Source: an uncultured Gammaproteobacteria bacterium | GTDB taxonomy: Bacteria; Patescibacteriota; Microgenomatia; UBA10105; UBA927 | DNA length: 64,000 nt | Direction: 5' to 3' | Assembly (NCBI GenBank): GCA_964609895.1 | Contig: CAZSTG010000003.1 | Span: forward strand, 7,574-71,573 | Shown: piece by piece, positions 13,840 through 62,499 of the stretch | Layout of the letters: each line of letters opens with the position of its first letter | How positions within the stretch are numbered: position 1 is the stretch's first letter | Translations under genes and position numbers: made by a program | Notes under the pieces: generated by a model | The model's input: only the letters and a program-made list of their open reading frames with translations | The model's database searches: none | Told to the model about the DNA's origin: nothing

Positions 13840-15300
13840 ATGAAAGCAAAGGCCTTTACCATCATCTGTTTATTGTCGATTGCAGTCATTGGTGTTTTGA
13901 TGCGTCTGTATAAGGTGCAGGAGCCGGTCGCAGATTGGCACAGCTGGCGGCAGGCGGATACTGCGGCGGTTGCGAGAAATTATGTACGATTTGGGATTGA
14001 TCTGCTGCATCCACGTTATGATGATCTTTCAAACATTCAATCCGGTACGGACAATCCAGAGGGGTATCGGATGGTGGAATTTCCTTTGTATCAGGCGGCA
14101 GCGGCATGGTGTTATACACTGTTTGGAAGTGTTTCCATCGAACTATGGCTTCGTATATTCGCCATTGCGGCATCGACAATCACAGGATGTGCGCTGGGAT
14201 TGTTTCTGTGGCGGAGAATAAATGCAATTACAGGAGTATTAAGTGCGTTGTTGTATGCCGTCCTTCCGTATAGCGTGTATTATGGGAGAGCAATACTTCC
14301 TGACGGCATAGCTGTATGTTTTGCTATTCTGAGTATTCTATTTTTTGATATTGGAAACGACGAAAAGAAAAAGTCCGGAATATGGGGATATACACTTCTT
14401 TCAGCACTTTTTGGTGCAACCTCTCTTCTTGTTAAACCTGTTGCCGGATTTTTACTGCTGCCTTTGGCAGGCATGCTTTTTGTTGATAAAAAACAGGTGG
14501 GAAAAACACTCATCCGACTTGTGGCTGTGAGTGTGATAACACTGGTGCCGTTTTATGTTTGGCGTCAATGGATAGCCCAATATCCAGAGGGAATAGCCGC
14601 ATATATGTGGTTATTTAACGGCAACGGGATACGTCTGAAAGGCGCATGGTTTTATTGGCTGTTTGCGGAACGGATCGGCAAACTTATCCTAGGATACTGG
14701 GGCGTTCTGTTTTTGGGATTGGGGCTTATCGAAAAAACAGAAAAGAAAGAGCGGTTTCTCAGTCATCTTTTGGGGTTGGGCGCGCTGCTGTATATGGTTA
14801 TTCTTGCAACCGGCAATGTGCAACATGATTACTATCAGATTCTGATTCTCCCTGCGGTTGCGGTGTACGGAGCAAAAGGGATCGCATGGATGATCAAGAA
14901 AAACTGGGAGACAAGGGGACTGCAGAAAATAGTAGGAATCGCCGTGGGAATGGTTGTATGTGTATTCACTGTCTTTTTTTCATGGTATACCGTGAGAACA
15001 TATTACTGGATTAACAGACCCGAAATCATTGAGGCGGGATTGGCTGCACAAAAACTTCTTCCGGAAAATGCAAAAGTCGTTGCGCCATATAACGGCGACA
15101 CAACATTTTTGTATCAGACCGGTCATCAGGGATGGCCACTAGGATTTGATATAGATCAAAAAATAAAGATGGGTGCAACACACTATGTGACTGTGTCTCC
15201 GACAGATGCTGATTTAGAGACGCGGGATCTTGCCAATATGTATACTGTGCTTGTAAGAAACGACAAGTTCGCAATTATTGATTTGACGAAGAAAAAATAA
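13840..15300 (+). CDS. GT-C membrane glycosyltransferase, GT39/ArnT-like (dolichyl-phosphate-mannose-protein mannosyltransferase family)
   Basis: N-terminal HSWRQADTAAVARNYV motif typical of bacterial GT39/GT83. About 12 TM helices, 486 aa. Confidence 0.6.
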   Translation: MKAKAFTIICLLSIAVIGVLMRLYKVQEPVADWHSWRQADTAAVARNYVRFGIDLLHPRYDDLSNIQSGTDNPEGYRMVEFPLYQAAAAWCYTLFGSVSIELWLRIFAIAASTITGCALGLFLWRRINAITGVLSALLYAVLPYSVYYGRAILPDGIAVCFAILSILFFDIGNDEKKKSGIWGYTLLSALFGATSLLVKPVAGFLLLPLAGMLFVDKKQVGKTLIRLVAVSVITLVPFYVWRQWIAQYPEGIAAYMWLFNGNGIRLKGAWFYWLFAERIGKLILGYWGVLFLGLGLIEKTEKKERFLSHLLGLGALLYMVILATGNVQHDYYQILILPAVAVYGAKGIAWMIKKNWETRGLQKIVGIAVGMVVCVFTVFFSWYTVRTYYWINRPEIIEAGLAAQKLLPENAKVVAPYNGDTTFLYQTGHQGWPLGFDIDQKIKMGATHYVTVSPTDADLETRDLANMYTVLVRNDKFAIIDLTKKK

Positions 15301-15304
15301 CGCC

Positions 15305-16477
15305 ATGAATATACTGTTTGTCAGTGCACTCCTGCCATATCCGCTCCACTCAGGTGGACAGGTGCGCATGTACAATCTTCTGAAACTGTTAAGCAAAAAA
15401 CATACCATAACACTCTTTTCGTTTATGAGGAACAAGGAGGAACAAAACTATATTCGTTCCTTATCGTTTTTGTCTGATATTCATTTGGTCATGCGGGGAA
15501 AAGGAAGACAGGTAAAATATGTGGTCAAAGCACTGGGGAATTATCCACTCCTTCTTGCAACCTACGACAACAGGGTGATGCAGGAGGAAATAAAAAAGGA
15601 ACTCACAAGGAAGAAGTACGATCTGGTGCACATAGAGCCGTTTTATGTGTTTCCATCACTGCCACCGCTCTCACTTCCGTTCGTGGTGTCTGAGCACAAC
15701 GTCGAATATGACATTTATCAGAAAAATGCGGAAAAAATGCGGTTGCCGATTGTGAAACCTTTTGCTTATTTTGATGCCATAAAGGTGAAAATATGGGAAG
15801 AGATCGTCTGGCAAAAAGCAAAGCAGGTAACAGCGGTATCGTCTGAAGACGCAACAGTGATAACCCGTGCAACAAAAAAAGAAACGGCAGTTGTTCCGAA
15901 TGGCGTAGACACAACAGCATTTGTGTACAAAGAGCGGGCGTTTATAAAAGATCACCCCACCTGTTTATTTGTCGGAAATTTTCTCTGGGCGCCAAATACA
16001 GAGGCAATACGAACTCTCCTTGTGTCCATTTGGCCAAAGATTGTTGCTCGCTACCCGAACGCTGTGCTTACCATTGTCGGAAAACACTTTCCCAAAGACG
16101 TAAAAAAATATGTAACCGGTTCTGTGCGTCTTGAGGAATATGTTGAGGATATCCAAGATGCATTCCATGCATCAGATATTCTGCTTGCGCCAATGGGAAT
16201 AGGTGGGGGAACGAAATTTAAGATTCTTGAGGCAATGGCATCAGGCACACTGGTCATCACCACTCCCCAAGGAAGAATGGGTATCGTCGGAGCATCCGGA
16301 AAAGAATTGCTGGAAGCCTCGACTGCTGATGAGTTTGTTGGGGCAGTCACTTCGGTTTATGACGAACAGCGTACGTCTAAGATCATAACGAAAAACGCGA
16401 GGAAATTAGTTGAAAATACCTATGATTGGAAGGCAATCGCAGAAAAGTTGGATGCGGTTTGGAAAGGATCAGTATGA
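15305..16477 (+). CDS. glycosyltransferase family 4
   Basis: GT-B fold, N-terminal MNILFVSALLPYPLHSGGQVR and C-terminal Glycos_transf_1-like region. ATGA overlap with the next gene. Confidence 0.7.
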   Translation: MNILFVSALLPYPLHSGGQVRMYNLLKLLSKKHTITLFSFMRNKEEQNYIRSLSFLSDIHLVMRGKGRQVKYVVKALGNYPLLLATYDNRVMQEEIKKELTRKKYDLVHIEPFYVFPSLPPLSLPFVVSEHNVEYDIYQKNAEKMRLPIVKPFAYFDAIKVKIWEEIVWQKAKQVTAVSSEDATVITRATKKETAVVPNGVDTTAFVYKERAFIKDHPTCLFVGNFLWAPNTEAIRTLLVSIWPKIVARYPNAVLTIVGKHFPKDVKKYVTGSVRLEEYVEDIQDAFHASDILLAPMGIGGGTKFKILEAMASGTLVITTPQGRMGIVGASGKELLEASTADEFVGAVTSVYDEQRTSKIITKNARKLVENTYDWKAIAEKLDAVWKGSV

Positions 16478-49568: not shown

Positions 49569-50738
49569 ATGCTGATTAAACCGGAGATTGCGAGATTTGC
49601 AAAAATAAAAGTTGTCGGCATTGGAGGCGGAGGAAGCAATGCAGTCAATTCCATGATTTCGGCCGGCACGATCAAGGGGGTTGATTTTATCGCCGTCAAC
49701 ACGGACGCGCAGGCACTGCTGACTAATCTGGCACAGACAAAAATTCAAATAGGCGACAATGTGACACGGGGTTTAGGTGCAGGCGGCAATCCCGAAATCG
49801 GCAGACAGGCGGCGGAAGAATCAAGGGAAAAAATCAAGGAATATCTGCGCGACTGCGACATGGTATTTATTACGTGCGGTGAGGGTGGAGGAACAGGAAC
49901 GGGAGCGGCACCGATATTTGCGGAAATCGCCAAGGAACAGGGTGCACTTACTGTTGCTGTTGTGACAAAACCATTTCGGTTTGAAGGAACGAGACGCATG
50001 GTGTCTGCTGAAGAAGGCATCATGAATCTGAAAGACAAAGTCGACACACTCATCGTTATTCCCAATCAACGACTGCTGGAAGTAATCGATAAAAAACTGA
50101 CATTGCTTGAGGCATTCCGCGTTGCCGATTCTGTGCTCAGTCAGGGCGTACAGGGAATATCTGATCTGATCACTATGCCGGGACTCATTAACGTGGATTT
50201 TGCGGATGTCAGGTCTATTATGACGAATGCGGGATCGGCGCTTATGGGGATAGGAACCGGCGTCGGAGAAAACAGGGCGGCGACAGCTGCAAGAACAGCG
50301 GTTGCTTCTCCACTTTTGGAAATGTCCGTTGAGGGGGCAAAAGGTGTGCTCTTTAATATTACCGGAGGAACTGATTTGACGATGGCGGAGGTTGATGAGG
50401 CTGCAAAACAGATTGCAGGTGCGGTAGATCCGGATGCAAATATTATTTTTGGTGCAACCATTGATGAAAATCTGGTCGATCAGGTAAAAATATCCGTGAT
50501 AGCAACGGGTTTTGATGAAACCAAGAAACGGCTTCGGGAAATGTCGGCCGCACGGGGCGCGACACAGACGGGTTTCGGGCAGGGGTACACACCGCGTCCG
50601 ATGCAGCCGGTACAACAGGTGCAGCCTGTTTCCCAGCAGCCGTCGCAGGCGTCGTCACCCGTGTTTACTCCGCCGAACGATGTTCCTCCGGAGGATGATG
50701 AATTTGAAATCCCCGCATTCCTACGGCAGAGGAATTAG
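49569..50738 (+). CDS. ftsZ: cell division GTPase FtsZ
   Basis: [15 protein letters not shown], tubulin signature [10 protein letters not shown] and NVDFAD motifs. C-terminal conserved peptide [13 protein letters not shown]. Confidence 0.95.
50707..50738. repeat. attL-like direct repeat at the ftsZ 3' end (AAATCCCCGCATTCCTACGGCAGAGGAATTAG)
   Basis: 27/32 nt identical to 56366-56397. Both copies translate to IPAFLRQRN-stop in the ftsZ frame, and the mismatches are synonymous. Confidence 0.6.
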
Positions 50739-50917
50739 GACAGAACGCTCCAATCTCTCCATGCTACCATATGAGACTATATTTTGAGGTCTTCATAACG
50801 GAACAGTTTGAAGATTTAAGTTGATTTTTGAGGCTAAAAGTGGTAGTATATACATGTTGTTCCTCGTAGAGCTTCTGTATATTTTTACCACAAATTTCAG
50901 ACTGTTTCGGATAATGT

Positions 50918-51940
50918 ATGTTATTCGATGCAGAAGACTTCAAGCGATTTATAATGATTAAAGAAGGTCTTGATACTGGCTCAATACGTCATTGTATGAG
51001 TAGGTTTAGGCTGTTTAATCAATGGTTATATGCTTCGGGTTTAGAACTCAATAAAGATTGTGTAGAAAGGTATTTTTCAGAATTAAAAGAAAAAGGATTA
51101 AAGAATAATTCGCTTAACACATATAGCTTCATGTTTCGTCATTTGGTTTCTTATTGCAAAGATAGAGGTTTACCCAGCGATTTTTTTGATGGCTTTAAGT
51201 CATTCAAGAAAACTAAGCCTGATATTATTATTTTTACTCAAGAAGAGATTGAGAAAATTCTTACTACCGATCTTACATACGGTTTGTTTCATGGAAAATC
51301 TTCTGACTTTTTAAATTTTCGATATAAGACAATGACCATGTTTCTTGCATATACTGGTTGCCGATATTCAGAGGTAGCAGAATTAACAGTGAAGCACGTT
51401 GATATTAGTGCAGGAAGAGCAACATTTGTGAATACCAAAACAAATGAAAATCGGACAGCGTATTTTACCGAACCATTGAAGAGTAATATAAAGAAATTAA
51501 TTGAGAATAGACAACCGAACGATAGAATATTTTGTAATTCCTCAAACAAACAAATTCAGGTTACAGAATACAGTGGTGATTTAAAAAGAAGAGCAATAGA
51601 AGCAGGAGTCACAAAGAGAACGTTCCCCCATAACTTCAGACATAGTTATATAACCCACATGTTGGAGGCAGGTGTACCTATTACAGAGGTCGCAACGCTC
51701 GTCGGACATAAAGACATACAAACAACCTATTCAACGTATATGCATTTAGCTGATAAAACACTTGAACGAGCTGCGATGCGTCATCCGATGGTACGGAAAA
51801 ACGTTGATCCGAAAGAAATTTTGAAGATGATAAAAGAAATGATAGAAGGATATCATTTGGAAAATGACAATCGATTTACATATAAAATTGAAGATAAAGG
51901 AGAGGAATTAAATATAAGCATTTCAAGATCATATGAATAA
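50918..51940 (+). CDS. int: tyrosine-type site-specific recombinase/integrase
   Basis: C-terminal catalytic region with R...HNFRHSYITHMLEAGVPITEVATLVGHKDIQTTYSTYMH (R-H-R-Y family signature). Confidence 0.85.
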   Translation: MLFDAEDFKRFIMIKEGLDTGSIRHCMSRFRLFNQWLYASGLELNKDCVERYFSELKEKGLKNNSLNTYSFMFRHLVSYCKDRGLPSDFFDGFKSFKKTKPDIIIFTQEEIEKILTTDLTYGLFHGKSSDFLNFRYKTMTMFLAYTGCRYSEVAELTVKHVDISAGRATFVNTKTNENRTAYFTEPLKSNIKKLIENRQPNDRIFCNSSNKQIQVTEYSGDLKRRAIEAGVTKRTFPHNFRHSYITHMLEAGVPITEVATLVGHKDIQTTYSTYMHLADKTLERAAMRHPMVRKNVDPKEILKMIKEMIEGYHLENDNRFTYKIEDKGEELNISISRSYE

Positions 51941-52493
51941 TACCTATTTAGCTAAACCAATTACATGGGATACGATACGTACTCGGTTTGATCCGCAACA
52001 TGTTCAATTCGAAGCTGAAAAAGAATTGAAAACAATCACACCAGAAAAAAGGGAATTCGAAGGCACAACAAATATATATAAAGCGTTCACTCTTAAAGAG
52101 TTCGAGAATGGAGTTTTATTGAGTGAAACATTGAAAGAAGAATATAAGACTTTTGCTATTGACCTTAGTCGAAATATTCAGAAAGAATACAATTGTTCAA
52201 CTGTTAGTCAAAAAGCTACAGCGGAGCTAATAGCTTGTTCGTATAGTCGGATATTACAAACGACAATGATGATTACTCGATATCTCAATATTGGCTCGGT
52301 GTCGGACAGTGGAATTAAATATCTAGCTGTGATGTCTAAAGAGCTTGATCGAGCACAGAGGCACTATACAACGGCATTACAAACCTTGTTTATGCTCAAA
52401 CAACCACCATTGAATATTACTGTAAAGGCAGAAACAGCGAATATAGCTAATAACCAGTTAATACAACAAAATAACCACGTTAAGCCCATATGA
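51933..52493 (+). CDS. hypothetical protein (element cargo)
   Basis: 186-aa ORF overlapping the integrase stop by 8 nt. No motif recognised. Confidence 0.4.
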   Translation: MNNTYLAKPITWDTIRTRFDPQHVQFEAEKELKTITPEKREFEGTTNIYKAFTLKEFENGVLLSETLKEEYKTFAIDLSRNIQKEYNCSTVSQKATAELIACSYSRILQTTMMITRYLNIGSVSDSGIKYLAVMSKELDRAQRHYTTALQTLFMLKQPPLNITVKAETANIANNQLIQQNNHVKPI

Positions 52494-52768
52494 TTACTCA
52501 TAATTCTTTGGTGGCGGAAAACTGTCTAAAAATACGAATAGATGATTATGTGCGTCAGGTAAGAAATAGTCTTAAAAAAGTTATTATAGAAGCTCAGATA
52601 AATGTAAATGGCGACAACATTAAACTTTGTGAATCAAATACAAGATTTGGCGGATCAAGATTATGGTTTGAATGTCCGTTATGTAAAAGGAGACGAGAGA
52701 TTCTATATATCAATTCAACAGGCAAAAAAATAGTTTGTCGAAAATGTATCAGATTAAATTATAAGTAA
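52490..52768 (+). CDS. hypothetical protein with C-terminal CxxC...CxxC zinc ribbon
   Basis: ATGA overlap with the upstream ORF. CPLCKRRREILYINSTGKKIVCRKC. Confidence 0.4.
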   Translation: MITHNSLVAENCLKIRIDDYVRQVRNSLKKVIIEAQINVNGDNIKLCESNTRFGGSRLWFECPLCKRRREILYINSTGKKIVCRKCIRLNYK

Positions 52769-52846
52769 ATTGAATTGTGAATGGTTTGCAGTAATAATCT
52801 ATCGGGATATAATAGCGGTAGTGGGACATATATTTAAGATATTGGC

Positions 52847-54163
52847 ATGAAACAAAAACTTATTACCTTCATGTTTTTTTCTTGGTTGTCTTCTATTTTA
52901 TTCTTTATTGCATTAATTGTTTTAATGGTTATTGCAAATATAAGTATACAAAACCATATTGTTGCATGGATTTTATATATGGATATTGGATTTGGTGTTT
53001 TATCTTGTTTAGGATTTTTTACAAGTGTTTTATTAATACATGATCCTGCTTACCAAAAAAATTCAAAGAAAGTTAAACCAATTAAATTTATAACCACGGT
53101 AATAGCATTTATAATATTGTTTATTCTTGTCCCCCGTTTAATATCTGGTCGCTATTTACAAGCAGCCTCAGTATATGCACAAAATGGAGATAGTCAAAAA
53201 GCGATAAATGCTTATAAAAATGCTAAAATTGCGTTACGTTGGACTATTTCGGATACTTCTGAAGTAAAGAAAATCGATAAATTAATTGCAGAGACCCCAA
53301 CAGATTGTGTAATCAACGAAGTACAGGTTAAGGCTACAAAGGAAAAATGCGATGAGTGGGTAAACTATCTTAAAACATCATTAACTCCAACTCCGAAACA
53401 AACCACCTTTACTTATCCATGCACAGGAGGAAATTCAAAACAAACGATTTACGTAAAAGATAATAGTGACTGTCAACAAAATTATACAGATTGTGAACTT
53501 AATGATGGTACATGGAAAGTAATGGCAAAAAACGATTGTAATATTGCTCAAGGAAGAACTGGTTCAGGAGGAAAGATTGACTGTGTCGGACCAGATGGAA
53601 AACATCTCCAGTTAACACAGCAAGAGTGTGACAATTTTAATGCTGCTTGGGGAAAGCCTAGAAGTGGTGGTAATAATAATGCGACAACAAACGTGCGAAC
53701 ATCTGCGACAGCAAACATTAGATCAGCACCCGCAAATAATGGCATGATTCAGTGTTCTTATTCAAACGGAGAATATCAATATAACTATGGTTTTATCACA
53801 ATTGAAGAATGCATGGTAAAAAATAATCAGTATTGGGATTCATTAAAAGTACCATCAACCATAGGTTCAAATACTCAACCAACTACTACGCCATCAAACA
53901 ATCAAACTACAGTTAATACGTCAGCATGTTATAGCCAGTATAATGCAGATGTTCAAAGGGCAAATAGTTATGGAGGTAATGTTGGTGCAAGTATGAAAGA
54001 GATGGCACAAAATAATTTATCATACTGTTTATCCTCAGGAAATGTAACTGCAGTAGGAAATGTTACAAAAGAGCCACCAAGAGATGCGAATGGAAAACTT
54101 TGTTCTGACTATACATCTGAAGAGATGGTAATCGCATTATCAATGGGTTGTCCTTATCCCTGA
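52847..54163 (+). CDS. membrane-anchored Cys-rich low-complexity protein (element cargo)
   Basis: Three N-terminal TM helices, one TPR-like stretch, then T/N/S/Q-rich extracytoplasmic region with at least 12 Cys. Confidence 0.45.
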   Translation: MKQKLITFMFFSWLSSILFFIALIVLMVIANISIQNHIVAWILYMDIGFGVLSCLGFFTSVLLIHDPAYQKNSKKVKPIKFITTVIAFIILFILVPRLISGRYLQAASVYAQNGDSQKAINAYKNAKIALRWTISDTSEVKKIDKLIAETPTDCVINEVQVKATKEKCDEWVNYLKTSLTPTPKQTTFTYPCTGGNSKQTIYVKDNSDCQQNYTDCELNDGTWKVMAKNDCNIAQGRTGSGGKIDCVGPDGKHLQLTQQECDNFNAAWGKPRSGGNNNATTNVRTSATANIRSAPANNGMIQCSYSNGEYQYNYGFITIEECMVKNNQYWDSLKVPSTIGSNTQPTTTPSNNQTTVNTSACYSQYNADVQRANSYGGNVGASMKEMAQNNLSYCLSSGNVTAVGNVTKEPPRDANGKLCSDYTSEEMVIALSMGCPYP

Positions 54164-54371
54164 AACACATTAAGTCTTTTTTATCAGAAATCCTCTTTTC
54201 GACAAAGTTTTAACTTAAGTTTGTTTTAAAATATAGCCCATAATAATATTGCTATAGTTTGATCTAGATGAGTACTAGATTTGCTATCCCCTTATAGGGC
54301 GATAACGTACCTACTTCTTTTTTAGACTTCATATATAGGATAGAAAACCTATTTTTGATTGATTAACTGAT

Positions 54372-54542
54372 ATGAATTCCCAAGAACAAAAAACAATTGT
54401 TGTCAAAACCAAACCAAAGGTTCTCCCTGTGGAATGTCCAGTGTGTCACAACTTTGGAACAGTTGGATATGCACAAAAAGTCTGTCATGGCTGTGGAGGT
54501 AAGGGGTACATTCTTGTACCGGCTGAGGAGGCGCTACCATGA
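54372..54542 (+). CDS. small zinc-ribbon protein with DnaJ-type CxxCxGxG motif (56 aa; shorter than the ORF-track cutoff)
   Basis: Translated here: MNSQEQKTIVVKTKPKVLPVECPVCHNFGTVGYAQKVCHGCGGKGYILVPAEEALP. ATGA overlap with the next ORF. Confidence 0.4.
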   Translation: MNSQEQKTIVVKTKPKVLPVECPVCHNFGTVGYAQKVCHGCGGKGYILVPAEEALP

Positions 54543-55060
54543 TCTTCGAGAATTCACAATTTAGTTTAAATAACCAGTCATTATTAAAGGATAAGATTAT
54601 TCGGCACATACAAGAGCTAGGTGGTGAGTATGAACCCGAAAGCAGTCTAAGTTTGAGGGATCAGCTTTTTGTATGCGAATCTATCGTGGAAGCCCCACCT
54701 GTTAAACAAGTTGATAACAACGGAATGATAAGTGTTAATGGGAGTGTTAATGATAGCTATAAACGAAACGTTAACTTTGAGTTAACACAGAGTAAACTAA
54801 ACGTTGTTATTAAGTTAAAAAAATGTACCTACAAAACCTCTCCAAAAGATATTGCGATTTTTCTTGAACAATTTTTTATAGATTTTCCCTCCAAGTCAGG
54901 TCATTGGTTATATATAGCACAACATTGGACTCCAAGAACGATAGTCAGAGTCATAGAGAAATTGATAAAACTTGATTTTTCAGGGAGAGCTACTCTTCAT
55001 AATCCTGCTGGTTACTTTACATACCTAATTAAATTCAGAAAGAAACGGAGGAGTATATGA
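54539..55060 (+). CDS. hypothetical protein, basic C-terminus (possible DNA-binding/replication-associated)
   Basis: 173 aa. Ends FRKKRRSI. Helix-turn-helix-like TPRTIVRVIEKLIKL. Speculative. Confidence 0.35.
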   Translation: MIFENSQFSLNNQSLLKDKIIRHIQELGGEYEPESSLSLRDQLFVCESIVEAPPVKQVDNNGMISVNGSVNDSYKRNVNFELTQSKLNVVIKLKKCTYKTSPKDIAIFLEQFFIDFPSKSGHWLYIAQHWTPRTIVRVIEKLIKLDFSGRATLHNPAGYFTYLIKFRKKRRSI

Positions 55061-55371
55061 ATACCAATGATAGCAGTAAACATTGCTATAGAATCATTCT
55101 AAGAGTGTGGAAGAACGGTGAAAACAGTAAAACGTACCGTACAACAAAATCCAAGCGTTTTTATTCAGTTGTTGAGGCGGAAGATTTTCAAAAAGCCTAT
55201 CTTAAAGTTTCTTACGGTAAAGACAAAACTAACTTCGGTAAGAATGAGGAATTTTATAACGATGGCGACTACATGACCAAGAAAGAGTTAATTGAGGCAT
55301 TCAAAGCCTTCACAGAGCAAAACCGAAGTACAGATAAGGGTTCTACGAGGAACAACTATCGAAACGGCTGA
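55057..55371 (+). CDS. hypothetical protein
   Basis: 104-aa ORF, ATGA overlap with upstream. Lys-rich. Confidence 0.35.
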   Translation: MNTNDSSKHCYRIILRVWKNGENSKTYRTTKSKRFYSVVEAEDFQKAYLKVSYGKDKTNFGKNEEFYNDGDYMTKKELIEAFKAFTEQNRSTDKGSTRNNYRNG

Positions 55372-55553
55372 GGTTTGTGAGTGGGGATTACTAAGGAAAC
55401 TAGTCCCCACGAATGAGACCTTAGGAATGTTAAAATACTATCCTCTTTTGTGAAAATCTGAGGCTGAGTAAAATACTATCGGTCAGTACAAATTAGTTAT
55501 AGGGGAGCGTAGCCTCAGAATCAGGTCGCATTACAAGTATTGTACGACGTTAA

Positions 55554-55976
55554 TTAGTTTACTGGTTTTAGGTTATCGAGAAGTTCCATTTGTTTGCTTT
55601 TAAAATCGAAAGTAATGCGAAATCTATTAAAAAAACATTCATGACCAAGAATGATCGGAGTAGATGGTGGTAATTTGTCAGTAAAATAAAACGGACATAT
55701 TAATTTTGTATTACATACATAAAGTTGAACATTGCCTTTAATTGTTTGTATGGGTTGGTTATTAACACCCTTGAATTCTCTTGTTTTTGTAGGATCAAGC
55801 GTAAGGTTTAATGCTTTTGCTATATCAGTAATACAAAGACACGCATCAGCACCAGAATCTATAAGGGCGACGATAGATTGTTGTATTAATTGATGTGAAG
55901 ATGGATTGCCTAATCTAATCTGTATCCAAGGTTTATAGACATCTTGTTGTGGTGAAAAATATGGATATATCGCCAT
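55554..55976 (-). CDS. retropepsin-like (clan AA) aspartyl protease
   Basis: Motif ALIDSGADACLC (hydrophobic-hydrophobic-D-S/T-G-A), and length 140 aa, typical of single-domain dimeric retropepsins. Confidence 0.55.
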   Translation of the reverse strand: MAIYPYFSPQQDVYKPWIQIRLGNPSSHQLIQQSIVALIDSGADACLCITDIAKALNLTLDPTKTREFKGVNNQPIQTIKGNVQLYVCNTKLICPFYFTDKLPPSTPIILGHECFFNRFRITFDFKSKQMELLDNLKPVN

Positions 55977-55978
55977 AT

Positions 55979-56164
55979 CTAAGTAACAAATCCAAGATAA
56001 TTAGCAGCAGCGGGTACAAGTAAAATATCTTTTTGTAGTTTTGTCTTTTGGGTTATAGAATTAAACGATTTAGAATAAGCCACAACTTTATTTTGTTTTT
56101 TGTTGTAGGCAATCCAACCTGATTTATATTTTTGAAGGTGAGAAGTTAGATCAACTATTTTCAT
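55979..56164 (-). CDS. small hypothetical protein upstream of the protease
   Basis: 61-aa ORF ending 3 nt before the protease start on the same strand. Confidence 0.3.
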   Translation of the reverse strand: MKIVDLTSHLQKYKSGWIAYNKKQNKVVAYSKSFNSITQKTKLQKDILLVPAAANYLGFVT

Positions 56165-56365
56165 ATATTCTTACTATATAGATTATATATCTTTTGGTCA
56201 ATTATACCACGATCTGGATTGTTAGAACAATAAAATATACTATTCAGTTAATCTATTTGATTTAATTTTGTTACTCTGATACATTCTTTTTGAAGACTTA
56301 AAAATGTATTGAATCACATTGGTATCTTTGGGAAAGATTGAAGCTAAGAAATAATCCTGTCCTAT

Positions 56366-56397
56366 AAATCCCCGCATTCCTCAGGCAGCGGAATTGA
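56366..56397. repeat. attR-like direct repeat (AAATCCCCGCATTCCTCAGGCAGCGGAATTGA), probably the displaced native ftsZ 3' end
   Basis: Preceded by an in-frame TAA. Encodes IPAFLRQRN-stop. Followed by the hairpin GAATGCACAT...ATGTACATTC (56458-56484). Confidence 0.6.
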
Positions 56398-56492
56398 TGT
56401 TTGTTACATAAAGAATTTTTTTCTTCCTTGTTCTGCTTGGTCGGTCATCGTTTTTTTGAATGCACATACAGCAGATGTACATTCTTTATGTA

Positions 56493-56521
56493 TTGACTGT
56501 CATTGTTTTTAGAGCTACTAT
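56493..56521 (+). promoter_or_regulatory. sigma70-like promoter TTGACT-N17-TACTAT upstream of nrdJ
   Basis: Read directly from sequence. The first in-frame ATG downstream is 56556. Confidence 0.4.
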
Positions 56522-56555
56522 TGCGTTTTATGGCGTTCATATAAGCTATTTATAT

Positions 56556-58262
56556 ATGAAAGAATTCGTTACATCGAGCGGTGTAGAAAAAATGCTGCAT
56601 GAAGGAAAAATCATCGGCGATCATGAAAAACCACATGATATGTTTCGCCGTGTAGTTGATACTGTGTTTAACATCGAAAAACAATGGCAGAGTAGTCCGG
56701 AGGAGGTTGACAGGTACAGAACAGTATTTGAGAATCTGACCATCAGTAAAGCAATTTCCCTCGGCAGCCCTGTACTTACGAATGCCGGACGGGACGAACA
56801 TAATCAGTTTGCACTTTCTTCCTGTGTTGTTATACCTGTAGATTTAAGAAAAATTGATGAGGCGACGGTAAAAATTAAGGGATATTATCAACAGAACATG
56901 GGATCCGGTTTCGATTTTACTCCGTATGAAAATCCGGTTCAGTTGCTTTTGTGGCTGAATGAATTAGCAGATAAAGAAACGCAGACAGGACGATATGACA
57001 GATACATTGGAAACATCGGAAATCTTCACATTTCACATCCCAAAATACGGGAGTTTATTGGGGTGAAACGTACCAACAAAATTGCGCATTTCAATATTTC
57101 AGTAGATATTGATGACGCGTTTATGCAGGCTGTGAAACGGCACGATGTGTATCAACTGGCCGACGGAACATCCGTGGATGCGGCAACATTGCTTCACGAT
57201 ATTGCTGAAAGCGCGCATTATAACGGAGATCCCGGAATTCTATCTTTGGAGCGAATGAACAGAGATAATCCATTGAAAGAGGTTAGTCCGTATACATCTG
57301 TTCCTCCTTGTTCCGAAATGGGGTTGGCGCCGGGAGAAACATGTCAATTCGGATATATTAATCTGTCAAAGTTTGTTGTGGACGGACACATTGATTACAA
57401 GCGTTTATTTGTCGCATCATCCGTGATGACACGTGCTCTTGATAATGCCATAGAAATAGGAGTGTCCAGATATCCCGACATGGAAAGCAGCAGGTTGGCT
57501 TTGCTGAAGCGAAAGATTGGCATAGGGGTATGCGGATTGGCAGACACTTTCATTCAGTTGAATTTGCCGTATGGATCGGAAGAAAGTTTGCATGTTGCCA
57601 AAAATATGCTGTCCTGTATCAATTACGCATCTAAGGCAACATCCGTGACATTGTCTGAACAGCGCGGTTCCTGTCAGGCGATGCAAGACAGTGCACACAA
57701 TGAGTATTACCACGGGTTTATTGAGGAGCGGTATGCACACCATCCGACGGATATAGTCAGTACGGCCAACTGGGAACAACTTGCCGGATATATCAGAAGA
57801 ACAGGACATTTGCGTAATATTCTTACCACAGCGTTACCTCCGACGGGAAGAACGTCAATTCTTTTGGGGGTGACTCCAAGTATAGAACCATTGTTTTCAA
57901 CCCGATCATTGAATGAAAATACGCAGGCAGTTATTAATGATTTTGTTCATGCCCACGCCGATAACGGCGCATCGGATGCGGTACTGCATCGAGCAGAAAC
58001 AGAGGGAACGTTTCAAACATCACCGCTTGACGGTAAAGAAGTGTTAAGAACAGTGAAAGAGATATCCGCAAAGGAACAACTAGACATGATCGCTGCAATA
58101 TCCGGCGTGTATGACGAAGCAGTATCCAAAACGGTGAATTTGCCTCGTACCGCTACAGTAGATGATGTTGCTTCTATCTTTATGCACGCATATGATTTGG
58201 GTTTGAAAAATATATCCGTATACAGGGACGGCAGTTATGAAAACCAACCTGTCAGCTTATGA
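56556..58262 (+). CDS. nrdJ: ribonucleotide reductase, class II (adenosylcobalamin-dependent, NrdJ-like, short monomeric form)
   Basis: ALPPTGRTSILLGVTPSIEP (RNR finger-loop region) and C-terminal TVNLPRTATVDDVASIFMHAYDLGLKNISVYRDGS. Start set to Met 33 of ORF 56460, because the first 32 codons lie over a hairpin/promoter region. Confidence 0.75.
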   Translation: MKEFVTSSGVEKMLHEGKIIGDHEKPHDMFRRVVDTVFNIEKQWQSSPEEVDRYRTVFENLTISKAISLGSPVLTNAGRDEHNQFALSSCVVIPVDLRKIDEATVKIKGYYQQNMGSGFDFTPYENPVQLLLWLNELADKETQTGRYDRYIGNIGNLHISHPKIREFIGVKRTNKIAHFNISVDIDDAFMQAVKRHDVYQLADGTSVDAATLLHDIAESAHYNGDPGILSLERMNRDNPLKEVSPYTSVPPCSEMGLAPGETCQFGYINLSKFVVDGHIDYKRLFVASSVMTRALDNAIEIGVSRYPDMESSRLALLKRKIGIGVCGLADTFIQLNLPYGSEESLHVAKNMLSCINYASKATSVTLSEQRGSCQAMQDSAHNEYYHGFIEERYAHHPTDIVSTANWEQLAGYIRRTGHLRNILTTALPPTGRTSILLGVTPSIEPLFSTRSLNENTQAVINDFVHAHADNGASDAVLHRAETEGTFQTSPLDGKEVLRTVKEISAKEQLDMIAAISGVYDEAVSKTVNLPRTATVDDVASIFMHAYDLGLKNISVYRDGSYENQPVSL

Positions 58263-59074
58263 AAGAAATAGACGTTGCCATCATTGGGGATATCGCATGG
58301 AATGAGGATATTACTCCAGCCGGCAGAAGCATCTCTCCCGGAGGTGCTGCATATTATTCATCTGTGGGGGCGGCGCAGTTTACCGAACGCGTTGGTGTGG
58401 TTGCTCGGGTCGGTCAGGATTTTGATTTATCTTATCTTACCGAAAAAGGTATCGATACGGAAGGAATACTCGTATCCGAAAAGGAAAAAACATGCAGATT
58501 TGTGCTAACACAGCACGCGGATAATTCCAGAAATTTTACAGCGGATCGGGGGGTTGCCGGCATTGTGGAGACGGGAATTTTTCCTGCCTCGTATGCATCT
58601 GCCAAATATATACACTTACCCACGCAATTACCGTCACATGCGTTAACGTGGATTGACAAGCTGACGGAACACCCGAATGTTTCAGTGGACAGTTTTGAGG
58701 CGTTTGTTAAGGAATTTCCCGAAATGACGAAAGAAATGTTTCGTAAAGCTGCTCTTATTTTTACGAATGAGGATGAATATCAGACACTGATGCAGTTAGG
58801 TCAGGAAGCCTTCTCTTCGCCCGTAATTCTGAAAAAAGGGAAGCACGGTGCTGTATATATACATAAACATGATACAATTGTTGTCCCTGCACACGCGGTT
58901 GATCCGGTTGATACAACGGGCGCAGGAGATGTTTTAGCGGGTGCATTTTTGGCACAGCGTGCACAGGGTCGTTCTATTGAAGCGTCGTTACAACACGCCG
59001 TTGATTTGGCGTCACAATCGGTGACAGCGTTTGGTGTCGAACATATGCGTACTATAAGGAGGGAACATGTCTAA
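58259..59074 (+). CDS. PfkB-family carbohydrate/nucleoside kinase (ribokinase-like)
   Basis: N-terminal GG dipeptide region and C-terminal DTTGAGD motif. Confidence 0.8.
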   Translation: MKEIDVAIIGDIAWNEDITPAGRSISPGGAAYYSSVGAAQFTERVGVVARVGQDFDLSYLTEKGIDTEGILVSEKEKTCRFVLTQHADNSRNFTADRGVAGIVETGIFPASYASAKYIHLPTQLPSHALTWIDKLTEHPNVSVDSFEAFVKEFPEMTKEMFRKAALIFTNEDEYQTLMQLGQEAFSSPVILKKGKHGAVYIHKHDTIVVPAHAVDPVDTTGAGDVLAGAFLAQRAQGRSIEASLQHAVDLASQSVTAFGVEHMRTIRREHV

Positions 59075-59582
59075 TATGAAAGAAAACGGAAACCGTTCGG
59101 TTATACACACAATGACGGAATTTACGAGAAGTGTGTTGCAGGAGAATCTGGCAGCGTTGGAGAAAAAATATGCGGCCGATCAAGCTGCCATGGGCGCCGC
59201 CGTAGAAAAAGGCGATGAATATCATGATAATTTTGCATATGAACAAGCAACAAGAGATAGGGATATGACTTATACACAGTTATTGCAGGCAAAAGAGAGG
59301 TTGCGGGATGTTCAGATCATCAAGCCAAGAAGCGAAACAGACACGATCGGTATCGGAAACGCAATGACCATACGTTTCGAGGGTGAATCTGAAGATGAAG
59401 GGTTTACATTATTGGGAACGGAGGACGGAAACATCAAAGACGGATGGCTCTCGAATACCTCTCCTCTGGGAAGTGCCTTGTTCGGCAAAAAGGTTGGAGA
59501 TGTTATTGAATTTGTAGCAGGGGAAGGGGCACAAATAAAACATAAAATTACCGTTAAGAGTATCCGTCCCGGTGTCTTTTAA
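59067..59582 (+). CDS. greA: transcription elongation factor GreA
   Basis: C-terminal FKBP-like SPLGSALFGKKVGDVIEF. N-terminal coiled-coil region. Confidence 0.8.
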   Translation: MSNMKENGNRSVIHTMTEFTRSVLQENLAALEKKYAADQAAMGAAVEKGDEYHDNFAYEQATRDRDMTYTQLLQAKERLRDVQIIKPRSETDTIGIGNAMTIRFEGESEDEGFTLLGTEDGNIKDGWLSNTSPLGSALFGKKVGDVIEFVAGEGAQIKHKITVKSIRPGVF

Positions 59583-60181
59583 TGGCTTTTTTCTGCACGT
59601 ATTATCTGTGTGAGTGCACGTGTTGCTGATTCCGCTGTCTGGTGAGTATTGTCAAATGGGGTAATGTTCCAATGTAGAGTTTCTGCCCACGTAAGATACT
59701 TCAATTCCATGGCGTCCTGATTTTTCAGGCTTTCGATATCATCCGATGTAATGACATTTCTTTTCATCATCCGTTCTTCACGGACTTTATTATCAACGTG
59801 TATCAGAAATGCCATGGATGGTTTGGTTATCATTCGTCCTATCCCTGTCCATATGTTCATCCAAAACGGAGAAGCCCCCATACTGTCATGTGCTACCAGT
59901 GTCGTTAAGAGGGATCGGTCCTGAAAAACATCCTTATCGGTATTTTTTAACACCGGCTGAATGATCATCTGATCAACCCATACATTACTGAATGCATAAT
60001 ATAAAAGGCGCACGTTTGAGTTTTTTGTTTCATTAAAGGGTTTTCTGAACGTTCGCATCCAGTCGGGAGGACAATGAGTCAGTAAACCATCGTATTCTTT
60101 CGCGAGGTTTTCTGCGAGTGTTGTTTTTCCGCTCGCATCAAGGCCTTCCAGATTATATAATCCTCCCCGTTCTGTATTCAT
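59579..60181 (-). CDS. P-loop deoxynucleoside/thymidylate kinase-like protein
   Basis: LEGLDASGKTT Walker A. Start set to internal ATG (Met 22); the ORF-track start at 60244 is a TTG codon. Confidence 0.55.
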   Translation of the reverse strand: MNTERGGLYNLEGLDASGKTTLAENLAKEYDGLLTHCPPDWMRTFRKPFNETKNSNVRLLYYAFSNVWVDQMIIQPVLKNTDKDVFQDRSLLTTLVAHDSMGASPFWMNIWTGIGRMITKPSMAFLIHVDNKVREERMMKRNVITSDDIESLKNQDAMELKYLTWAETLHWNITPFDNTHQTAESATRALTQIIRAEKSH

Positions 60182-60322
60182 GAGGAGAATAATATAAGCT
60201 ATTTTAAGATTATGCAAGGCTGAATTATTTGTTGTCAGATACAAGCATCTCGCAGATGTACGTCATACATGGTGTCGTCATGAAGTGTATGAGACGCCTC
60301 TTTACGGGAGCAGTATGATACC

Positions 60323-61771
60323 ATGATAAGTATGAAATCGTTGAAGAACTGGTTTGAAAAACATTCATTCCGTCTCTTTATTCTGTATTCTCTGCTTCTT
60401 GGCGTGCTTTACAGTACGCTCTCCATCGTTCGTCACAATCATTTTCAATCCGGTGCCTTTGATCTGGGACTGTATGATCAGGCGGTGTGGAAGTTCGGCC
60501 ACATGCTTGGTGCCTACAATACGGTAAAAGAACGCATTCTATTCGGTGATCATTTTGTTCTCACGCTTCCTGTATTCGGCATACTTTTTTATCTCTGGGA
60601 TAATGTACGAATTCTCTTAATTGTTCAGGCGTTTGCTATTGCGTCATCAGCAATCCCAATATTTTTGATTGCAAAAAAACGCTTGGCTTCTTCCATGGCT
60701 GCTTGTTGTGTAGGCATCATGTACAGCCTGTTTTACGGCATTCAGTATGGCGTATATTTTGATTTTCATCCGATTATCATCGGTGTTGCCGTTCTTTCTT
60801 GGCTTGCGTATTTTTGGGAATATGACAAAAGATTGTTGTTTTGGATAACGCTTGTTGTCGGACTGGCGACGCAGGAAAACATGGGGATAGCCATCGCAGG
60901 ACTGGCGGCGATATTTTTCTTTCGAAAAAAATATTGGAAAACCGCAATTATCGTCGGCATTCTTGGCATCGCATATAGTTTACTTTCCATAAAAATTTCC
61001 GCGCTGTTTTCTCCTGTGGGGTATCAATATCTGCCTCAATTGCCGACAAGTATCAGTCAGGCATTTGCCCAATTATTTGACAGTGAGGAAAAACGACAGG
61101 TGTGGTTGTATAGTTATTCTACGTTTTCCTTTCTCCCACTGTTATCTCTAGGCAGTGTGATTGCGGTGCTGGCGGATTTGTCCCAGTATTTTGTAACGGG
61201 TCCGGAATTTGCCAGAATGTGGAGTCCGTTTATGCATCATCGGGCGATTCTTGCTCCATTTCTCGTTCTTGGAACTATTGATGTATTGGCATTTCTCCGC
61301 AAACGGAAAATCCGTGTCGTCTATGTATCGGTTGTTCTTCTCGGTGTTTCGCTTATCCTGCAATACGTATTTCATTTTCCATTGAACAAACTGACCAAGT
61401 CCGCATACTGGAAAGAAGAACCGTGGATGCAGGATGCGCGGCAATTGCTTTCACTTGTTCCGAAAAACGCGTCTGTTGCTTCGCAGCAAAATTTAGTCCC
61501 ACATCTGTCGCACAGAAATGAAATATATCTCGTATGGCCGAGGCAGCATGACATTGAATCCATGCCATGCGGGCAAAAACTGTGTTGGTGGTTGGATTTT
61601 GGTGGACATCCCGAGTATCTGGTTGTTGATACGAGACCCGATCAATGGCTCACGCAGACGCTTGAATCAGATGAGAACTGGAATAGTGCTATAACGAACA
61701 TGGAAAAAGCCGGTGTGATTACACTGCAAACGGCAGTTGGAGGTGCGAGACTCTACAGAATCGTCAAATGA
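60323..61771 (+). CDS. DUF2079-family polytopic membrane protein
   Basis: SGAFDLGLYDQAVW and GDHF motifs near the N-terminus, as I recall for DUF2079. About 12 TM helices. Confidence 0.5.
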   Translation: MISMKSLKNWFEKHSFRLFILYSLLLGVLYSTLSIVRHNHFQSGAFDLGLYDQAVWKFGHMLGAYNTVKERILFGDHFVLTLPVFGILFYLWDNVRILLIVQAFAIASSAIPIFLIAKKRLASSMAACCVGIMYSLFYGIQYGVYFDFHPIIIGVAVLSWLAYFWEYDKRLLFWITLVVGLATQENMGIAIAGLAAIFFFRKKYWKTAIIVGILGIAYSLLSIKISALFSPVGYQYLPQLPTSISQAFAQLFDSEEKRQVWLYSYSTFSFLPLLSLGSVIAVLADLSQYFVTGPEFARMWSPFMHHRAILAPFLVLGTIDVLAFLRKRKIRVVYVSVVLLGVSLILQYVFHFPLNKLTKSAYWKEEPWMQDARQLLSLVPKNASVASQQNLVPHLSHRNEIYLVWPRQHDIESMPCGQKLCWWLDFGGHPEYLVVDTRPDQWLTQTLESDENWNSAITNMEKAGVITLQTAVGGARLYRIVK

Positions 61772-61778
61772 CCCGTTT

Positions 61779-61807
61779 TTGTCTGTTTTTCCACTATAGG
61801 GTATAAT
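61779..61807 (+). promoter_or_regulatory. sigma70-like promoter TTGTCT-N17-TATAAT
   Basis: Read directly from sequence. A 125-nt leader precedes the small ORF at 61940. Confidence 0.4.
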
Positions 61808-61939
61808 AGAGGCCTGCCATGTGTTTCAATTAAGTTCCTTACTGAAAGGTCAAACTTGAAAGAAACGCTCTTTACCATCATGGGCGTGTAACTGGAGCAT
61901 CTGCAGAGAGATGCATCATTCTATGACAAGGAGTCAGAC

Positions 61940-62173
61940 ATGTTGACAGGAATGCTGTGGACTGTTGATTCAGTTCCAACTCTCGCTGATATTCAACGCG
62001 GGATAGATTTTTACGAAAAAAAATACGGCATAAAACCAGACCTTTGCTACTACTCTCAGAATGAAGTAAATTTTCCGAAACTGCCGAAGACATTAACTCG
62101 GGAACTTGAGTGTGTCGCATCGGACAAAATCAATGTAGGCAGTATATGGTTTGGCAAAAAGAAAGGAAACTAA
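61940..62173 (+). CDS. small hypothetical protein (77 aa)
   Basis: SD AAGGAG 7 nt upstream of ATG. No recognisable motif. Confidence 0.35.
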   Translation: MLTGMLWTVDSVPTLADIQRGIDFYEKKYGIKPDLCYYSQNEVNFPKLPKTLTRELECVASDKINVGSIWFGKKKGN

Positions 62174-62286
62174 ATAACAATTACATACCATGATGAAACT
62201 AATACAACCGAGATTTTTCTCGTTCATCCTTTCGAGGATATTGTTGTATTAGTTTTCTGCAACTTGGCCGTATAAAAAATGTTATA

Positions 62287-62315
62287 TTGAGGACAGGTGT
62301 CTATTTTGCTATACT
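62287..62315 (+). promoter_or_regulatory. sigma70-like promoter TTGAGG-N17-TATACT for the ileS leader
   Basis: Read directly from sequence. Confidence 0.45.
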
Positions 62316-62321
62316 AAGAAA

Positions 62322-62499
62322 AGCAAAAAAGCGTCATCATCTGTCATCAGCAGAGAATCGCTTGAATAAAGAACGTCTGTGCAAAGACAAGTAGAATATT
62401 CCGGGTAAGCCCGAAACAGCTGTCATTAAGAAGCAATAAAGGTGGTACCACGAACATCCGTTCGTCCTTTGTGTAATAATAAAGGAGGACGGTTTTTTT
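62322..62499 (+). promoter_or_regulatory. T-box riboswitch leader of ileS (antiterminator with 7-nt UGGUACC bulge; AUC-A specifier candidates upstream)
   Basis: A1 AAAGG/CCUUU (62438-42 and 62466-70). Bulge TGGTACC 62443-49. A2 ACGAAC/GUUCGU (62450-55 and 62460-65) with loop AUCC. ATCA at about 62335-62348. Mutually exclusive terminator 62458-62499. Confidence 0.65.
62458..62499 (+). terminator. intrinsic terminator of the ileS leader; its 3' arm contains the ileS SD (AAAGGAGG)
   Basis: CCGTTC(g)TCCTTT / AAAGGAGGACGG, 12-bp stem with one bulge, loop GTGTAATAAT, then 7 T (62493-62499). Confidence 0.6.

Follow-up and report, generated by a model that had tools for sequence, protein, structure and literature searches.

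The stretch of DNA analysed here (the window; 64,000 nt of contig CAZSTG010000003.1) carries what is very probably an integrative element, situated at the end of ftsZ, a gene for cell division, and bringing along its own replacement for the tail of the gene it enters. The element would consist of positions 50739-56365 together with one tail copy, resident in a Candidatus Gottesmanbacteria chromosome. In the proposed mechanism, a Xer-like integrase would recombine the attachment site of the element (attP) with a chromosomal site (attB) in the last ftsZ codons, strand exchange most likely falling in a 6-bp YCCCGC centre—the third base of an isoleucine codon, a proline codon, and the first two bases of an alanine codon—between 11-bp imperfect inverted half-sites. 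The part of ftsZ lying 3' of the crossover, namely the third alanine base, the residues F-L-R-Q-R-N, and the stop codon, would then come from the element, and the native tail would have been moved 5.66 kb downstream, untranslated behind a stop codon. The conserved C-terminal tail peptide of FtsZ anchors the protein to FtsA and other partners, so that the attP half would be constrained to the same amino acids, its codons drifting and being shaped also by half-site symmetry. Two nested pairs of inverted repeats in the arms, symmetric about the core, are probably accessory binding sites. The repeats, the intact integrase, the break in composition, the linkage of the whole family to the FtsZ tail, the single-copy sites of close relatives, the boundary between host and element inside the tail, and the synonymous recoding are direct observations; just where strands cross over, what the arm repeats do, whether the element is active today, and how it passes between cells are inferred.

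The duplicated ftsZ tail and the integrase beside it

49569-50738, + strand: ftsZ, the target gene; intact open reading frame (ORF) of 389 aa (Pfam Tubulin 2.8e-51, FtsZ_C 3.7e-35)
50707-50738, + strand: putative attL, the ftsZ-proximal copy of a 32-nt repeat, AAATCCCCGCATTCCTACGGCAGAGGAATTAG
50918-51940, + strand: Xer-like tyrosine integrase of 340 aa (PF00589 1.1e-34; phrog_1 1.6e-47)
56366-56397, + strand: putative attR, the distal repeat copy, read as a TAA and then the tail codons, AAATCCCCGCATTCCTCAGGCAGCGGAATTGA; central CCCCGC at 56370-56375

A preliminary description of this DNA had reported that the end of ftsZ occurs twice in recoded form, and sequence comparison confirms it: the two copies, spaced 5,659 nt apart, are identical at 27 of 32 nucleotides and both correspond to the final nine codons plus stop of the gene (IPAFLRQRN-stop), the five differences (CTA CGG to CTC AGG, AGG to CGG, and TAG to TGA) all being synonymous or stop-to-stop. 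The exact block shared by the copies comprises the 16 nt at the 5' end, AAATCCCCGCATTCCT, and the in-frame TAA said to precede the distal copy is present at 56365-56367. Short as the repeat is at 32 nt, a chance match, local duplication, or assembly artefact is scarcely credible. The 16-mer, with up to two mismatches allowed, occurs at just two sites in the window, the two copies themselves, against an expectation of 0.05 matches in shuffled sequence and with none of 100 shuffles reaching two; a repeat search of the window recovers the pair independently. Local misassembly is excluded because the same ftsZ-integrase junction is found, identical, in an independent assembly (L091; Logan, SRR8925774), and like architecture is seen in dozens of unrelated assemblies.

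The tyrosine integrase and AT-rich cargo that had been placed between the copies are likewise there, and the GC comparison with the flanks that had been proposed gives a clear drop, from 0.453 in the remainder of the window to 0.339 in 50739-56365, the lowest value for an equal-size window elsewhere being 0.418. As the preliminary description also held, there is no tRNA gene nearby, ARAGORN finding neither tRNA nor tmRNA genes in the window.

The catalytic set of the integrase (R..K..HxxR..H..Y) is complete when aligned to XerA (4a8e), with whose motifs its own TGCRYSE, HNFRHSY, GHKD, and TY match up. Its best matches among models are XerA, XerD, and XerC, and the proposed core has the 11-6-11 layout usual for Xer sites, both of which would suit a dif-like dimer-resolution site served by the host Xer and merely exploited by the element, as in IMEX-type elements. 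This alternative is nevertheless highly improbable. The protein falls far short of the NCBIfam equivalog cut-offs (135 against 220 for XerA, 111 against 330 for XerD, and 102 against 335 for XerC); its gene is missing next to ftsZ in the nearest relatives, and so is not a core host function; the gene is part of the AT-rich insert and follows the element, not the host, in its variation; and the site is the ftsZ coding tail, conserved at the protein level.

The integrase clade and the origin of the tail copies

The genomic contexts of relatives, cited here by locus number (L001 and so on), were gathered by exact look-ups together with metagenome and IMG/VR scans. At E<=1e-10, 317 homologues of the window integrase are found; the best 120 of them are all at least 64% identical to it and about 337-340 aa long. 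On more than 60 independent contigs with integrase relatives at 36-92% identity, a copy of the FtsZ tail almost always adjoins the integrase gene, in one of three layouts. In the commonest, which is that of the window, ftsZ and the integrase gene run in the same direction; in the second, the integrase gene is convergent with ftsZ (L104, L112, L124, L142, L143, L146); and in the third, it adjoins the distal copy (L130-L139, L148). Contigs broken at the repeat (L098, L135) have their first or last letters within the tail. Where enough sequence is available, a second copy lies at 3.7-16 kb (from L151 to the NODE_382 contig), outside any ORF, and these second copies share the host-specific ending, be it RQRS (L082, L103), RQKN (L102, L124), RQIR (L114, L116, L126), or RQKR (L084/L081). 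A nucleotide-based search returned about 27 tail copies preceded by an element arm, 25 of them intact and encoding the complete tail and two decayed, by a premature stop (the L087 group) and by a 1-nt deletion (L092).

The hosts of the clade have FtsZ proteins 61-97% identical, and the cargo varies widely, including a Phage_CRI rolling-circle Rep with HicAB or NYN genes in L082 and L087-L090 and DnaB/AAA_25 and Pif1-like genes in L084/L081. In L105, the same as L172 (IMG/VR UViG_3300027835_000014), there is a tailed prophage (Dit and tail-fibre genes) whose integrase is 30% identical and likewise sits beside a tail copy. One integrase clade is found at one site with very different cargo, from small elements to at least one tailed prophage, and the repeated use of that site leads to arrays of tandem insertions and to remnants in decay. 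On one contig, two elements follow each other in tandem, both with an integrase. In L105/L172, a small element of the family and the tailed prophage stand in tandem, with FtsZ-tail copies bounding both.

To which partner the tail belongs is seen most directly in L113 and L120, which are 100% identical over 3,000 nt of upstream host DNA and on to nucleotide 17 of the tail, and diverge from there. The divergence within the tail is synonymous (AGG CAG ATT AGA TAA against AGA CAA ATT AGA TAG) and extends through the arm and the integrase (77% amino-acid identity). The two loci represent one host with two element variants, the boundary lying inside the ftsZ tail. In these relatives the replacement 3' end belongs to the element, a conclusion carried over to the window itself by homology. 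There, the distal copy (56366-56397) would be the displaced native tail, and the final ~7 ftsZ codons and the stop would have been supplied by the element. Elsewhere, too, the kinship of the hosts does not agree with that of the elements: between the window and L095, FtsZ is 97% and the integrase 76% identical; between the window and L092, the values are 83% and 92%; and between L109 and L143, 88% and 39%.

Over 17 copy pairs from 15 loci, 102 nucleotide differences amount to a single amino-acid difference and affect the third base of codons or, in Leu and Arg codons, a synonymous first base, though this synonymy is inflated for the first six codons, most distal copies having first been found by the peptide motif IP[AT]FLR. 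Neither the window pair nor the tail endings are affected by that bias, and in the window pair taken by itself an equal number of randomly changed sites would keep the peptide with a probability of ~3e-4. Recoding between the tail copies is, to judge from these comparisons, under protein-level selection. The residues supplied by the element are identical in 17 of 17 pairs, and the tail peptide of the window ftsZ is the same as in the unoccupied relatives L176, L178, and L180. The possibility that the element alters the FtsZ tail was considered and rejected, the sole residue change, V/I in L126, lying 5' of the proposed crossover.

Proposed attachment sites, unoccupied loci, and arrays

50700-50727, + strand: proposed attL core from dyad-symmetry analysis, made up of an 11-nt arm GAATTTGAAAT, the 6-bp CCCCGC (50711-50716), and an 11-nt arm ATTCCTACGGC
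50739-50917, + strand: P' arm, element DNA from the ftsZ stop to the integrase start, its sequence kept in elements of different hosts; partners of the inverted repeats at 50747-50760 and 50781-50795
56252-56369, + strand: P arm, conserved, ending in GTCCTATAAAT; motifs TGAAGACTTAAAAAT (56291-56305) and GGAAAGATTGAAGC (56331-56344)

Every distal copy has a conserved element arm on its left; that of the window, the P arm, shares 75-87% identity with its counterparts in L001 (three copies), L081, L092 (two), L103, and L123. With a site model of 11 nt, 6 nt (YCCCGC), and 11 nt, all four sites were rebuilt for 12 att pairs, attP being composed of the left half of the distal copy and the right half of the ftsZ-proximal copy. 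Mean half-site complementarity, out of 11, is highest in attP (8.1), followed by attR (6.9), attL (5.5), and attB (4.75); attP exceeds attR in nine of the 12 pairs, equals it in three, and falls below it in none, the ftsZ-proximal half-site pairing with the element arm better than the distal half-site does. The dyad signal is specific to its register, complementarity being 0.73 there and never above 0.29 when the register is shifted by 1-3 nt. Since the central 6 bp are the same within all 12 intact pairs and the following base often differs, the crossover is likely to fall in YCCCGC. The rebuilt attP of the window further contains the inverted pair TGAAGACTTAAAAAT / ATTTTGAGGTCTTCA, each member 64 nt from the centre, and the inverted pair GGAAAGATTGAAGC / GCTCCAATCTCTCC, at 25 and 30 nt from it, and the arm motifs TTGAAGCTAA / TTAGCTTCAA and GAAGACTTAAAAAT / CATTTTnAAGTCTTC are found again in other elements.

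The closest FtsZ matches are named Candidatus Gottesmanbacteria (Patescibacteria, or candidate phyla radiation, CPR), and among relatives the upstream synteny (dcw genes, ftsA) is conserved, whereas the downstream synteny is not. The three nearest relatives, with FtsZ 93-95% identical, have a single tail copy and no integrase. In L176/L177, ftsZ is followed after 62 nt by DUF2079 and ileS, in L180 by two small genes and ileS, and in L178/L179 by sulfatase genes; in the distant Microgenomates L004, L012, L017, and L029, ileS lies ~250-450 nt after ftsZ. The window ileS starts near 62500, ~11.7 kb past ftsZ, and is syntenic, together with DUF2079, with L001 and L176. Because the nearest relatives are single-copy and integrase-free and differ in downstream order, the 5.66-kb segment is an insertion and the ftsZ-ileS gap a hypervariable island in these genomes. 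The preliminary description had expected empty sites in which ftsZ runs directly into the sequence from 56398 onwards; unoccupied single-copy ftsZ genes do occur in relatives, but that junction was not found, because the ftsZ-ileS region differs in every one of them. Its central proposal, an element at the 3' end of ftsZ with its own replacement end, is supported by the L113/L120 boundary, the unoccupied relatives, and the half-site pairing.

Several results nonetheless weigh against this reading, in addition to the peptide-motif bias given above. The similarity of relatives' tails, tried as a guide to which window copy is native, is ambiguous and was set aside. The inner arm repeat of the window is imperfect, and on match counts alone the arm repeats exceed shuffled sequence only modestly, 7 of 200 shuffles reaching the best repeat observed. 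No empty site of the same strain was found, the exact FtsZ look-up returning just the same occupied junction, and clustering of all retrieved ftsZ 3' ends gave no occupied/empty pair. Neither an excised circle nor an attP junction was seen by exact-protein look-up or by an IMG/VR pattern search, the one match of the latter being a chance hit to an unrelated terminator hairpin. Genes for excisionase, replication, or transfer are not recognisable in the window element with Pfam, PHROGs, NCBIfam, or PADLOC. Finally, all assemblies examined of one widespread species (L003, L087-L090, L100) contain the element, with a distal copy (L087 15156) that reads IPAFLR-stop, so that there it looks fixed rather than mobile, with a displaced tail in decay.

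The fixed element of that species, the decayed junctions in L001 and L092/L181, and the lack of any excised form of the window element in the look-up and IMG/VR scan would all be expected if the window insertion were real but immobile now, a fixed or domesticated remnant with the repeats as fossils and an integrase that has merely persisted or taken on another role. Such a remnant is a real but doubtful possibility, as both window copies are intact, with the 16-nt block including the central 6 bp identical, the catalytic residues of the integrase are all present, the three nearest relatives are unoccupied, and the integrase is 92% identical in a host with 83% FtsZ identity and 76% identical in one with 97%. 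We lean towards present-day mobility of the window copy.

The tail copies also occur in integrase-less arrays. L001 (FtsZ 92%) has three intact tail copies and one partial arm without an integrase, the array containing def, an alkylation-repair pseudogene, and small ORFs. In L092/L181, ftsZ is followed by two integrase-less units (DUF3800; ArsR-thioredoxin-ArsP-DsbD) and then by a sibling of the window element, its integrase 92% identical to that of the window, and the internal junctions display a 1-nt deletion, a mutated centre, and a deleted tail. The preliminary description had counted repeats without an integrase in related genomes as evidence against an element, and taken literally these loci are just that; as a refutation, however, they do not hold. 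Each copy in these arrays is preceded by the same ~110-nt element arm, the arm-plus-core sites are degenerate, and the cargo of one L001 unit is found again beside a family integrase in L157. Because of the arms, the decaying junctions, and the cargo shared with integrase-bearing loci, the arrays are read as tandem insertions in decay, not as a free-standing motif. Tandem insertion at rebuilt attachment sites is a known outcome (PMC7192596). Peptide deformylase directly follows a tail copy in two close relatives, 4 nt past the ftsZ stop in L001 (11156-11698) and 27 nt past the distal copy in L095 (10413-10916); with 31% identity to each other, the two deformylases are not orthologues.

An integron-like capture platform would account for the arrays in another way, the ftsZ tail being its primary site and the arm-plus-tail units its cassettes, moved in trans. 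The units of 1.1-3.5 kb, with housekeeping-type genes and a conserved arm and core ending each, would fit this, as would the name of the best NCBIfam model for the integrase, 'site-specific tyrosine recombinase/integron integrase'. The idea is very unlikely all the same. The integrase reaches 73 bits against a cut-off of 265 for the integron-integrase model TIGR02249, over residues 216-280 only, and 47 against 435 bits for NF011946, with the match limited to the C-terminal catalytic stretch; array junctions decay instead of being maintained; neighbouring L001 sites differ in the central 6 bp; intact elements have their own integrase beside attL, like ordinary integrative elements; and the L001 unit cargo found beside an integrase in L157 is as expected of a decayed element. 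It is also unlikely that the ftsZ-ileS gap is a dedicated gene-acquisition locus of streamlined CPR genomes, with the clade moving integrase-less units in trans as well. Were this so, the coding tail of an essential division gene would be the primary site of an integron-like system, and host-type genes (def, arsenic/redox, repair) would be moved in trans beside autonomous elements and prophages.

Cargo, neighbourhood, and comparison with known systems

51933-52768, + strand: two overlapping ORFs in translational coupling with the integrase, one of 186 aa and one for a Cys4 protein of 92 aa; no family match
52847-54163, + strand: cargo protein of 438 aa, its N-terminal segments hydrophobic and its C-terminal part rich in Cys; no family match
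54372-55371, + strand: conserved three-gene module of a 56-aa zinc ribbon, a 173-aa all-alpha, and a 104-aa protein
55473-55551, no strand assigned: conserved non-coding block ATACTATCGG ... GTTATAGGGGAG ... TATTGTACGACGT, ~80-86% identical in L001 and L181
55554-56164, - strand: two ORFs, of 61 aa and then 140 aa, with weak retropepsin-like matches (Asp_protease_2 0.0023, below cut-off)
56398-62499, + strand: context outside the element (Pfam): ribonucleotide reductase (RNR), PfkB kinase, GreA-like, Tmk (-), DUF2079
56460-58262, + strand: RNR ORF (Ribonuc_red_lgC 2.5e-70)

Besides the integrase, eight ORFs lie between the tail copies, and none has a significant family assignment in Pfam, PHROGs, NCBIfam, or PADLOC, which give sub-threshold hints only (zinc ribbon, retropepsin-like). 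No virion or defence gene is recognised in the window element, there being no PHROG structural match; a rolling-circle Rep, of Phage_CRI or other type, is absent from it; and two structure predictions gave no informative fold. The pair of 186-aa and 92-aa ORFs and the three-gene module are common to the window element and other family members. Homologues of the pair lie 3' of the integrase in L092/L181 (89% and 60%) and are present in L103, and a partial homologue of the 438-aa protein occurs in L092.

A search of the whole element against Rfam at E<=0.1 returned nothing. The non-coding block extends over ~75 nt in three elements or remnants (window 55473-55551, L001 11708-11785, and L181 about 15225-15310). 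As it has no Rfam match, no supported fold, and no covariation, it may have a role at the DNA level, that of an origin being one example. An inverted repeat perfect over 15 nt, GTTGTTCCTCGTAGA / TCTACGAGGAACAAC, joins 50856-50870, upstream of the integrase start and kept in L092, with 55342-55356, at the 3' end of the 104-aa ORF, and might serve as an operator or for antisense pairing. In many elements, a strong hairpin with a T-run lies just past the ftsZ stop (L098 about 45-65, L102 about 145-165, L105 about 5925-5950 on the - strand, and also L109, L110, and L122) and would be an ftsZ terminator supplied by the element. Between ftsZ and the integrase gene of the window, no terminator was detected and promoter-like sites occur at shuffle expectation; given the lack of a detectable terminator, the window integrase might be read through from ftsZ.

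Beyond the distal copy, the label 'nrdJ' used earlier for the downstream gene is reasonable for the ribonucleotide reductase at 56460-58262. The block 56460-60244 (RNR, PfkB, GreA/GreB-like, and thymidylate kinase on the - strand) has host-like GC and is absent from L176, and may be an older accreted block or a set of lineage-specific host genes. In L006 (Levyibacteriota), an intact inverted tail copy with a stop (12842-12871, - strand) sits 1.7 kb downstream of ftsZ between convergent genes, with no integrase nearby.

Little has been described of the mobile elements of Patescibacteria/CPR. The searchable literature yielded no account of ftsZ serving as an attachment site, and ftsZ is absent from the supplements of a large survey of integrative genetic elements (PMC7192596). 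The mechanism is known, and what is new are the target, the host phylum, and a coherent, apparently undescribed integrase clade. In these CPR hosts, the ftsZ-ileS gap takes the part that tRNA genes have elsewhere. As the tail copies of the elements carry host-specific endings (RQRN, RQRS, RQKN, RQIR, RQKR), they could aid the assignment of CPR viruses and plasmids to hosts, and an integrase with a short, defined attB in a universally present gene may offer a starting point for site-specific integration where genetics is scarce. The system is, moreover, a small test case of one recombination site meeting the demands of both protein coding and half-site symmetry, and binning or annotation could go astray where such an AT-rich insert adjoins a core marker gene.

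Protein-gene targets of integration include icd (phage 21/e14) and fda (ICESt1/3). At icd, attP carries a substitute 3' end that is mainly synonymous, the gene stays functional, and the native fragment is displaced to the far end, as is proposed here. Phage 21/e14 resembles the window element in being a tyrosine-integrase element that enters a housekeeping protein gene in its 3' part and in forming tandem arrays, the icd repeat blocks and array effects being mentioned in PMC7192596. It differs in that the target here is the FtsZ C-terminal peptide and the hosts are CPR bacteria, in the length duplicated (~22-30 nt here, roughly 165 nt at icd), and in the integrase, which is short and Xer-like here and lambda-type at icd. 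The gene-restoring attP strategy is already known for both tRNA genes and protein genes (PMC7192596), trmE (SGI1) and bacA (PAISt) being further targets (PMC8409611, PMC6531882, PMC4057263). Like the window element, SGI1, PAISt, and ICESt1/3 enter a conserved gene site-specifically, a few codons before its stop, and show short flanking direct repeats, an integrase next to one end, and tandem or modular accretion, whereas the target gene and the phylum are different and conjugation or mobilisation genes are not recognisable here.

With the Xer/IMEX systems at dif, the window element has in common the Xer-like catalytic and core-binding domains and the putative 11-6-11 core, but it encodes its own recombinase, its site is coding and not at the terminus, and its long nested-repeat arms resemble a complex attP. 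Integron arrays are similar in consisting of short gene units, each with a recombination-site-like end, beside a tyrosine recombinase gene; here, in contrast, the integrase fails the integron model, the unit ends are decaying, and intact units have their own integrase. In tRNA-targeting prophages and islands, an attP fragment of the target likewise rebuilds the gene, and the core permits further insertions and arrays (PMC7192596). The attP fragment described here would instead be constrained as a peptide rather than as an RNA structure, and for this reason would drift at synonymous sites.

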